Shown: positions 22,305-23,666 of the stretch, piece by piece | How positions within the stretch are numbered: position 1 is the stretch's first letter | Layout: every line of letters starts with the position of its first letter | Source: Thermoplasmatota archaeon | GTDB lineage: Archaea; Thermoplasmatota; SW-10-69-26; JACQPN01; JAJPHT01 | Length of the DNA stretch: 64,000 nucleotides | Reading direction: 5' to 3' | Assembly: GCA_035540375.1 (NCBI GenBank) | Contig: DATLGO010000048.1 | Location: 27,772-91,771 of the forward strand | Program-made: the position numbers and the translations under genes | The notes under the pieces: generated by a model | What the model saw: the letters and a program-made list of their open reading frames with translations, nothing else | Database searches by the model: none | Told to the model about the DNA's origin: nothing

Positions 22305-23666
22305 ATGCCCGGCGCCCGCATCACGATCCGCCCGGACGGATCCCTCGACGTCCCCGACCGCCCCGTGATCCCGTTCATCGAGGGCGACGGCACGGGCCCC
22401 GACATCTGGCGCGCGGCCCGGCCCGTCCTCGACGCGGCGGTCGCGAAGGCGTACGACGGCCGACGCGCGATCGAATGGAAGCAGGTGTGGGCCGGCGAAG
22501 CCGCGTTCAACGCGACGGGCGAGTGGCTCCCGAAGGAGACGCTCGAGGCCTTCCGCGAATACGTCGTCGGCATCAAGGGCCCGCTCACGACGCCCGTCGG
22601 GAAGGGCATCCGGTCCCTGAACGTCGCGCTGCGCCAGGAGCTCGACCTCTACGCGTGCGTGCGCCCCGTCTACTACGTGCCCGGCGTGCCCGCGCCCGTG
22701 CGCGAGCCCGCGAAGATGAACATCGTGCTCTTCCGCGAGAACACCGAGGACGTCTACGCGGGCATCGAGTTCCAGGCCGGGTCCGCGGAAGCCGAGAAGC
22801 TCCGCTCGTTCCTCGTGAAGGAGCTCGGCGTGAAGCCCGGCAAGTTCCGCGGCGACAAGGTCGGCCTCGGCGTGAAGCCGATGAGCGAGGAAGGCTCGAA
22901 GCGCCTCGTGCGCAAGGCGATCCGACACGCGATCGAGAACCGGCTGCCCTCCGTCACGCTCGTGCACAAGGGCAACATCATGAAGTTCACCGAGGGCGCG
23001 TTCCTCGCGTGGGGCTACGAGGTCGCGACGACGGAGTTCCGCGCCCAGTGCGTCACGTGGGAGGAAGTGCAGAAGAACCACGGCGGCAAGGTCCCGGCGG
23101 GCAAGATCCTCGTCCAGGACATCATCGCCGACAACATGTTCCAGCAGCTCCTCACGCGCACGGACCAGTACTCGGTCCTCGCGACCGCGAACCTCAACGG
23201 CGACTATCTCTCGGACGCGGCCGCGGGCCAGATCGGCGGCCTCGGCATCGCGCCCGGCGCGAACATCGGCGACGGGTACGCGGTCTTCGAGGCGACACAC
23301 GGCACCGCGCCCAAGTACGCGGGTCAGGACAAGGTCAACCCCGGCTCCGTCATCCTCTCGGGCGTCATGATGCTCGAGTACCTCGGGTGGAAGGAGGCCG
23401 CGGCCCTCGTCCGGCAGAACTTCGAGAAGACGGTGAAGCAGAAGACCGTCACGTACGACCTCGCGCGCGAGATGGGCGTCGAGCCCGTGAAGGCGAGCGC
23501 CTTCGCGGCCGCCATCATCGCGAACATCGAAGGGCGCTCCGGCGCGAAGCCGAAGAAGCCCGCGAAGAAGACGGCGGCGCGCCCGGCCGCGAAGAGAGCG
23601 AAGCGCGGCGCGAAGGCGACGCCGAAGCGCGGCGCCAAGAAGCCCGCCGCGAAGCGCCGCCGCTGA
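22305..23666 (+). CDS. icd: NADP-dependent isocitrate dehydrogenase with a C-terminal Ala/Lys/Pro-rich basic tail
   Basis: Prokaryotic IDH motifs [32 protein letters not shown] and [19 protein letters not shown]. The normal C-terminus (...AAIIANIEG) is followed by [43 protein letters not shown]. Confidence 0.9.

Follow-up and report, generated by a model that had tools for sequence, protein, structure and literature searches.

A lysine-rich, histone H1-like C-terminal tail on the NADP-dependent isocitrate dehydrogenase of a Thermoplasmatota archaeon

Lysine-rich, histone H1-like tails are known on several nucleic-acid proteins, including HU, topoisomerase I, Ku, and AlgP; in eukaryotic aminoacyl-tRNA synthetases (aaRS), lysine-rich terminal extensions on a housekeeping enzyme provide non-specific affinity for RNA. 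Here we describe a tail of this general type on an NADP-dependent isocitrate dehydrogenase (NADP-IDH; hereafter IDH) encoded in a 64,000-nucleotide stretch from the assembly of a high-GC soil archaeon of the Thermoplasmatota (contig DATLGO010000048.1, positions 27,772 to 91,771; this whole stretch is referred to below as the window). Literature searches turned up no earlier account of an IDH extended in this way. What is new is that a familiar lysine-rich appendage sits on an enzyme where it was not expected, and in archaea, together with evidence of selection and convergence.

Actinobacterial topoisomerase I (TopA), in Streptomyces and Mycobacterium, likewise bears a lineage-specific K/A/P-rich C-terminal appendage on a conserved enzyme in a high-GC host, and its DNA binding has been established experimentally: in Streptomyces, the lysine repeats bind DNA and stabilize the enzyme–DNA complex (PMC5714199). 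However, DNA is the substrate of TopA and its tail serves catalysis, whereas nucleic acid is not a substrate of IDH; the repeats of the Streptomyces enzyme terminate in acidic residues, while the IDH tails described here end in [KR]x[KR]R; and the hosts are bacterial in one case and archaeal in the other, with no sequence homology detected between the two. In composition (~27% K, 24% A, 9% P, with T/S and scarce D/E), the IDH tails resemble the C-terminal domain (CTD) of histone H1, the bacterial H1-like proteins AlgP and Hc1, and the tails of HupS/Hlp, and share with them predicted disorder and an occasional S/TPxK motif. The H1-like proteins are nonetheless dedicated chromatin or nucleoid proteins, whereas the IDH tail is fused to a dehydrogenase of the tricarboxylic acid (TCA) cycle and has no kinship to them that is detectable with hidden Markov models (HMMs). 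In yeast, Aco1, Ilv5, and Idh1/Idh2 are found at mitochondrial nucleoids, and Idh1/Idh2 co-immunoprecipitate with the nucleoid protein Abf2, a precedent for a TCA enzyme, IDH included, being physically tied to genome packaging (PMC7463775). The yeast enzymes, however, involve folded bodies or partner proteins rather than a polycationic tail, and the IDH in that case is an NAD-dependent hetero-oligomer in a eukaryotic organelle.

The IDH open reading frame (ORF) of the window occupies positions 22305–23666 on the forward strand and encodes 453 amino acids (aa). Residues 1–410 (22305–23534) constitute a catalytic core of the homodimer type, assigned from PF00180, TIGR00183, PDB matches, and an AlphaFold2 (AF2) model; residues 411–453 (23535–23663) constitute a polycationic, low-complexity tail of 43 aa, read directly from the sequence and predicted by AF2 to be disordered; and a TGA stop codon follows at 23664–23666. 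The codon for G410 lies at 23532–23534, such that positions 23532–23666 run from this codon through the stop.

The core matches Pfam Iso_dh (PF00180) over residues 22–402 (E = 4.7e-90), as well as the NCBIfam equivalog TIGR00183 (prok_nadp_idh) with 628.3 bits against a cut-off of 567.3 (residues 3–408 corresponding to model positions 11–416 of 417) and NF005425 with 603.9 bits against a cut-off of 490. AF2, run on the window protein with a 33-sequence alignment, models the core confidently, with a final helix at residues 397–409. In the same alignment R103, S104, N106, R110, R120, Y151, K222, D276, D300, and D304 are invariant and align to B. subtilis IDH, and the core contains the substrate/metal-binding and regulatory-serine segment; we take these residues to have the roles known for their counterparts in E. 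coli IDH (substrate and metal binding, and the catalytic Asp, Tyr, and Lys). The NADP-specificity positions K337, Y338, and VTYDLAR (Y384, R388) are also present and invariant, and correspond to K344/Y345 (APKYAG) and Y391/R395 (TYDxxR) of E. coli. By these sequence-level features the core is a bona fide prokaryotic NADP-IDH and a member of TIGR00183; from its 64–69% identity to bacterial IDHs of characterized type and its likeness to solved dimers, we infer IDH activity and a homodimeric state. Canonical NADP-IDHs (E. coli Icd, B. subtilis CitC, and A. fulgidus IDH) have the same full-length core, with the same conserved segments. However, every solved IDH, including the best PDB matches (1hqs from B. 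subtilis, 2iv0 from A. fulgidus, and the E. coli enzyme), finishes, like the HMM, at approximately query residue 408, and none has a basic tail; the 43 tail residues of the window IDH therefore lie wholly beyond the known fold. Beyond the clade to which it belongs, the IDHs closest to this one are bacterial (Silvanigrella/Fluviispira at 67–69% identity, and many others) rather than archaeal, which suggests that the core gene was transferred between domains before the tail was added.

The window tail is composed of K12 R8 A12 P5 G3 T2 S1 (28% K, 19% R, 28% A, 12% P, and 0% D+E), with a net charge of +20 and no hydrophobic residue; pooled verified proteins of the window contain 4.0% K, 6.7% R, and 12.8% D+E. 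In the AF2 model, residues 411–453 are coil, with mean predicted local distance difference test (pLDDT) values of 51, 41, 45, and 43 in successive 10-residue blocks and values below 50 across residues 425–453; the tail is predicted to be intrinsically disordered. Tandem Repeats Finder recovered a degenerate 24-nucleotide repeat within it (KRGAKATP/KRGAKKPA, positions 23588–23640; period 24, 2.3 copies, 78% matches, score 69), along with a period of 12 over 23598–23657. This repeat suggests that the tail may have grown through local duplication; among relatives, (SAKK)n in P0002 and (PAKKA)n in P0020 are clearer short tandem repeats. By composition (K/A/R/P/T, with almost no acidic residues) and predicted disorder, the tail is of the H1-CTD-like, or lysine-repeat, compositional class. 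Querying Pfam with seven of the tails gave no relevant match at E ≤ 10, and a phmmer search of 1.84 billion representative proteins with the window tail returned 0 matches, a result that is uninformative for so low-complexity a query. Because neither Pfam nor phmmer detected a relationship, the likeness to H1-like families is, on sequence comparison, compositional or convergent: the tail is like such a family without being a member of one.

The original prediction, made from the letters of the window, had described an ORF that continues past a canonical IDH terminus (IEG) as a 43-aa lysine-rich tail of H1/AKP-like composition, and had considered its AAG-rich stretch conspicuous at ~70% GC. The analyses bear this description out: its coordinates, sequence, and length are exact, the core is recognized by both PF00180 and TIGR00183, the tail is K/A/P-rich with no D/E, and within a window of 70.6% GC all 12 of its lysine codons are AAG and it is K-rich relative to the other window proteins.

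The tail has the look of translated sequence, with no change in coding quality at the junction between core and tail. The GC content at third codon positions (GC3) is 0.977 in the tail and 0.968 in the body; lysine is encoded by AAG throughout, as in the body, with the same codon choice for alanine and arginine; and the two other frames of the tail read as R/E/S-rich nonsense. The identical 453-aa protein is present in NCBI, JGI, and ENA, deposited from a "Candidatus Thermoplasmatota archaeon" metagenome-assembled genome (MAG), and a further 19 assemblies contain homologous tails. The 24 closest IDHs, drawn from MAGs (including Thermoplasmatota) and from soil and farmland metagenomes, come from independent assemblies, are 71–83% identical, and range from 418 to 529 aa; below ~69% identity the matches are bacterial-type IDHs of 405–417 aa. 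In 20 of these 24, a basic C-terminal tail of 41–106 aa follows the conserved ...ANIEG, each with 0 or 1 acidic residue. The remaining four (P0016, P0018, P0019, and P0023) stop cleanly at or just past the IEG point, with no K-rich remnant downstream in any frame.

These observations bear on whether the tail is real. A spurious extension produced by a frameshift, a lost stop, or an assembly error is vanishingly improbable. Nothing at the window supports it, though an assembly fold-back elsewhere in these data (P0121, discussed below) shows that such errors do occur; it is contradicted by the matching GC3 and codon choice of tail and body, by the 20 independent assemblies with in-frame tails of differing lengths and stops, by the recovery of the identical protein in several archives, and by the expectation that random read-through here would be R/A/G/P-rich rather than K-rich. 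Since the tail is kept in most relatives, and the four tail-less members have clean stops without a remnant, a frameshift, read-through, or misassembly is in effect ruled out. An origin of the tail by fusion with a downstream small basic protein was also considered, and is rejected: the tail-less relatives have neither a K-rich ORF nor a remnant of one downstream.

A quick neighbor-joining distance tree of the IDH cores places all 24 sequences in one clade, with the tailed P0022 basal and the four tail-less members nested at separate positions; both the sister group and the bacterial IDHs lack a C-terminal tail. The simplest history consistent with this topology would be one gain of the tail followed by about four losses. 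Across the 20 tails (1,185 residues pooled), composition is K 27%, A 24%, R 11%, P 9%, T 7%, G 6%, V 5%, S 4%, and D+E 0.3%, and K/(K+R) is 0.70, as compared with 0.38 in the window proteins. Between close pairs, cores are 88–96% identical, while tails are only 41–80% identical and differ by many indels. Net charge, by comparison, varies little (+19 to +27, with one tail at +34), with a coefficient of variation of 0.16, whereas that of length is 0.26. Core charge is close to neutral (net −8 to +4), and the tail shifts the isoelectric point (pI) of the whole protein from ~6–8 to 9.4–9.95 in every tailed member. Because charge is held while tail sequence and length drift, selection appears to act on tail composition and total charge rather than on exact sequence. 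The original prediction had called the tail clearly selected and had proposed aligning it with the IDHs of related archaea; the alignment bears the first out and places the tail as clade-specific, kept across the clade while its sequence drifts and missing from sister IDHs. Neither an artefact signature near position 23530 nor a general absence of the tail from close relatives, the two outcomes the prediction had named as contrary, was found.

Superimposed on this drift, in the relatives' tails (P0003–P0022), are short islands of conserved sequence. A proximal island, R(K/P)TPIKPR, occurs at the tail start in sub-clades; a second, PA.TTGK(A/G)VNR, is present in 9 of the 20 tails; and a 21-residue block, KKVVRALEKATGARALAKAAK, is identical in P0009 and P0014. 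A C-terminal arginine is found in 17 of the 20 tails, with the terminal motif [KR]x[KR]R. The window tail ends in KRRR and is without the TTGKAVNR island. Such islands could function as short linear motifs that engage a partner.

The tail also appears to be specific to IDH within the sequence sampled. The tail is more than a product of chance: in a six-frame translation of the window, 30-aa stretches with at least seven lysines occur in just two ORFs, one of which is the IDH tail, and among the 38 window ORFs with high, coding-like GC3, only IDH has a K-rich C-terminus. The other lysine-rich stretch, AEKPQSIAAIKKKMHKAKLSK, is internal to an AMP-phosphorylase/thymidine-phosphorylase-type protein (43631–45157, reverse strand) with Glycos_trans_3N, Glycos_transf_3, and PYNP_C domains. 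When the window is considered together with ~125 kb surrounding the IDH genes of relatives (~190 kb in total), IDH is the sole carrier of an acid-free K-rich terminal extension; the neighboring aconitases, the window MDH, and the window DNA ligase have no such extension. A proteome-wide habit of K-rich tails is accordingly rejected for this ~190 kb. The original prediction had proposed a search for other AKP-tailed proteins without anticipating its outcome; none was found in the sequence sampled, and the tail is IDH-specific there.

Wider searches returned a single further candidate. A profile search with the tail region returned P0121 alone among possible other tailed proteins, and missed the source IDHs themselves as a result of low-complexity interference; an X-padded, motif-only profile gave 6 candidates and again only P0121. 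Scanning GTDB species genomes and JGI metagenomes with a degenerate DNA pattern for PA.TTGK(A/G)V(N/D)R recovered the IDH tails of L003, L005, L008, and L013 but no non-IDH carrier besides a fold-back contig, the rest being chance matches. P0121 (37 aa, VLTQAEELSG followed by the tail) was rejected as a second tail-bearing family, as it reflects an assembly fold-back at a contig end: bases 1–32 of contig L001 (= L009) are a perfect inverted copy of bases 105–136, the 3′ end of a convergent HTH_34 gene, and P0121 is therefore a spurious join of an HTH_34 regulator with an IDH tail.

Lysine-rich appendages were, however, observed at the opposite end of other IDHs. Two IDHs with 66–68% identity to that of the window, P0059 (L021, 1921–3243) and P0065 (L022, 1356–2654), are extended at the N-terminus by ~25–30 K/A/E-rich residues (MGKKEKKAKAEKKAKKAAKAQAKATAKK and MSKKKEAKKAKKAQKKEAKAKA), with a good AGGAG ribosome-binding site ahead of the ATG in each. 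Their contigs have 64% and 55% GC and neighboring genes for a HAMP-guanylate cyclase and pyruvate kinase, from which their lineage is probably bacterial. These data point to at least two gains of a lysine-rich appendage on IDH, at opposite ends, as a putative case of convergence; gain at either end speaks for a role that depends on charge rather than position and is linked to IDH itself. The N-terminal K/A/E extensions resemble those of the aaRS, yet in the latter the bound RNA is substrate and the hosts are eukaryotic.

As to function, we tentatively favor, at somewhat less than even confidence, the reading that the tail is an H1-CTD-like polyanion tether, with nucleic acid (nucleoid DNA, or RNA and ribosomes) the most likely ligand that we infer; the proposal in the original prediction that the tail tethers IDH to nucleic acid or to an acidic surface, or acts as a moonlighting DNA-binding appendage, is the most plausible one by analogy with lysine-repeat tails studied experimentally (PMC5714199, PMC9239181, PMC6821194). 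IDHs of this type are homodimers with C-termini on the distal large domains, as in the E. coli and B. subtilis structures, and each dimer would therefore display two flexible, well-separated tails of approximately +20. The tail would serve as a non-specific electrostatic tether to cellular polyanions; the two tails of a dimer could bind, and possibly bridge, such polyanions, and binding would concentrate or immobilize the production of NADPH and 2-oxoglutarate at the polyanion phase or place the enzyme under polyanion control. That lysine is preferred over the "cheaper" arginine at 70% GC, that D/E are strictly excluded, and that the tails are long fits nucleic-acid-type ligands best. In prokaryotes, K-rich low-complexity regions occur preferentially in proteins that bind DNA or RNA (PMC6821194). 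The DNA-binding lysine repeats of Streptomyces TopA and the association of yeast Idh1/Idh2 with Abf2 support this ligand by analogy as well.

Other polyanions could be proposed as the ligand. The H1-like KPAA-repeat CTD of AlgP is needed for normal organization of polyphosphate (polyP) granules, and AlgP is located on these granules and links them with chromatin (PMC9239181). By analogy, the IDH tails, which share this K/A/P composition and are free of acidic residues, might bind polyP, or bridge polyP and nucleic acid, and bring IDH to polyP bodies in starvation. We consider this unlikely: nothing connects IDH with polyP, and because AlgP is itself DNA-binding, the polyP and nucleic-acid models are not exclusive. 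Quite unlikely is an electrostatic membrane anchor, in which the polybasic tail would keep IDH against the inner, anionic side of the archaeal membrane. Several relatives' tails have V/L/I at i+3/i+4 in K-rich runs (KKVGVVAKVAKKVKKAA, KLAKTVGTVRKAVKTVSKKVA), compatible with amphipathic helices; but the window tail has no hydrophobic residue, AF2 predicts no helix in it (the model covers the window protein only), lengths of 41–106 aa and charges of +19 to +34 are far beyond typical polybasic membrane tags, and the pairing of A/P/T with K matches tails that bind nucleic acid (PMC6821194).

The gene surroundings of IDH bear on two further alternatives. Aconitase is encoded 1–4 kb upstream of IDH in four relatives (L017–L020), often with Met-tRNA synthetase and methyltransferase genes, a synteny that is absent at the window IDH. 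In L018, IDH is immediately followed by genes for a Ser/Thr kinase and an FHA-HTH protein. In the window, a single ORF with a ThiS (ubiquitin-like)–ThiF (E1-like)–rhodanese architecture lies 1.1 kb upstream of IDH (19350–21167, forward strand; true start probably near 19728); this SAMP/E1-type fusion is not a conserved neighbor of IDH in relatives. On the 3′ side, a convergent AsnC-type gene (23860–24129, reverse strand) is separated from IDH by a spacer of ~190 nucleotides. The protein repertoire of the window also includes aEF-1alpha, PAC2, an ATP-dependent DNA ligase, and the AMP-phosphorylase-type protein described above, which, with the Thermoplasmatota deposit of the identical IDH, mark the host as an archaeon. 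Farther downstream are two adjacent giant ORFs on the reverse strand: one (53887–60465) encodes 2192 aa with a net charge of −111, a pI of 4.6, and TSP3, Big_1, and DUF4129 matches, and the other (60462–63947) encodes 1161 aa with CARDB and NPCBM_assoc. Both are probably secreted or surface proteins.

The presence of aconitase near IDH in relatives is one of several points in favor of a protein-intrinsic role with no dedicated ligand, wherein the tail would act as an entropic bristle, shift solubility or pI, control oligomerization or condensates, or attract isocitrate/NADP+ or an acidic partner enzyme in a metabolon. The consistent rise in pI among tailed members, the conservation of composition, and the possibility of extension at either terminus are also compatible with such a role. 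It is nonetheless rather unlikely, as the near-neutral cores present no acidic surface to neutralize, the neighboring aconitases show no marked acidity (net −2 to −13, pI 5.9–6.8), and a solubility tag requires neither lysine over cheaper arginine at 70% GC nor strict exclusion of D/E. Docking specifically to an acidic neighboring aconitase was rejected as unsupported, these aconitases being near neutral.

The ThiS-ThiF(E1)-rhodanese gene and the PAC2 gene of the window, together with the kinase and FHA genes after IDH in L018, raise the alternative that the tail is a platform for post-translational modification of lysine, at which acetylation, methylation, or SAMP/ubiquitin-like conjugation would regulate the enzyme or mark it for turnover by the proteasome. 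The tails would expose 12–24 lysines in a disordered context, and S/TPx[K/R] motifs are modestly enriched (9 observed versus 4.1 expected, with 29 of 2000 shuffles reaching the observed number). However, the E1 and kinase neighbors are not conserved beside IDH in relatives; arginine is enriched as well and acidic residues are excluded, indicating charge rather than lysine chemistry alone; and modification would be likelier to modulate binding than to be the function itself. A modification platform is thus very unlikely as the primary role.

Returning to the nucleic-acid tether that we favor, several points weigh against it. Four clade members manage without the tail, which is therefore dispensable for IDH function, and we know of no need that IDH would have for nucleic acid. 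Homology of the tail to any DNA-binding or named H1-like family (Hc1, AlgP, or linker histone) was not detected with Pfam or phmmer. Composition does not distinguish DNA, RNA, polyP, and anionic lipid, making the ligand a presumptive one. The exclusivity of the tail to IDH extends only over the ~190 kb sampled. Finally, the sub-clade sequence islands hint at something more specific than bulk charge. An ambitious extension of the tether reading would accommodate these islands: the polycationic appendage could be a recurrently evolved, IDH-specific device that places NADPH and 2-oxoglutarate production on the nucleoid, ribosomes, or a polyanion condensate, or that makes IDH responsive to RNA, DNA, or polyP load (riboregulation), with R(K/P)TPIKPR, PA.TTGK(A/G)VNR, and [KR]x[KR]R as motifs for a dedicated partner. 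We regard this as improbable; if true, it would represent a previously unrecognized spatial organization of central metabolism in archaea.

The IDH tail alone changes no established view, and is best regarded as a testable curiosity concerning the spatial organization of metabolism. If the tail binds neither nucleic acid nor polyP, it would still offer, on an enzyme that is simple to assay, a clean case from nature of a disordered region evolving under conservation of charge. If it does bind either, it would provide a simple, genetically separable handle on enzyme localization, one that can be deleted or transplanted, and would allow one to ask whether prokaryotes localize TCA and NADPH-producing enzymes, and to what benefit.

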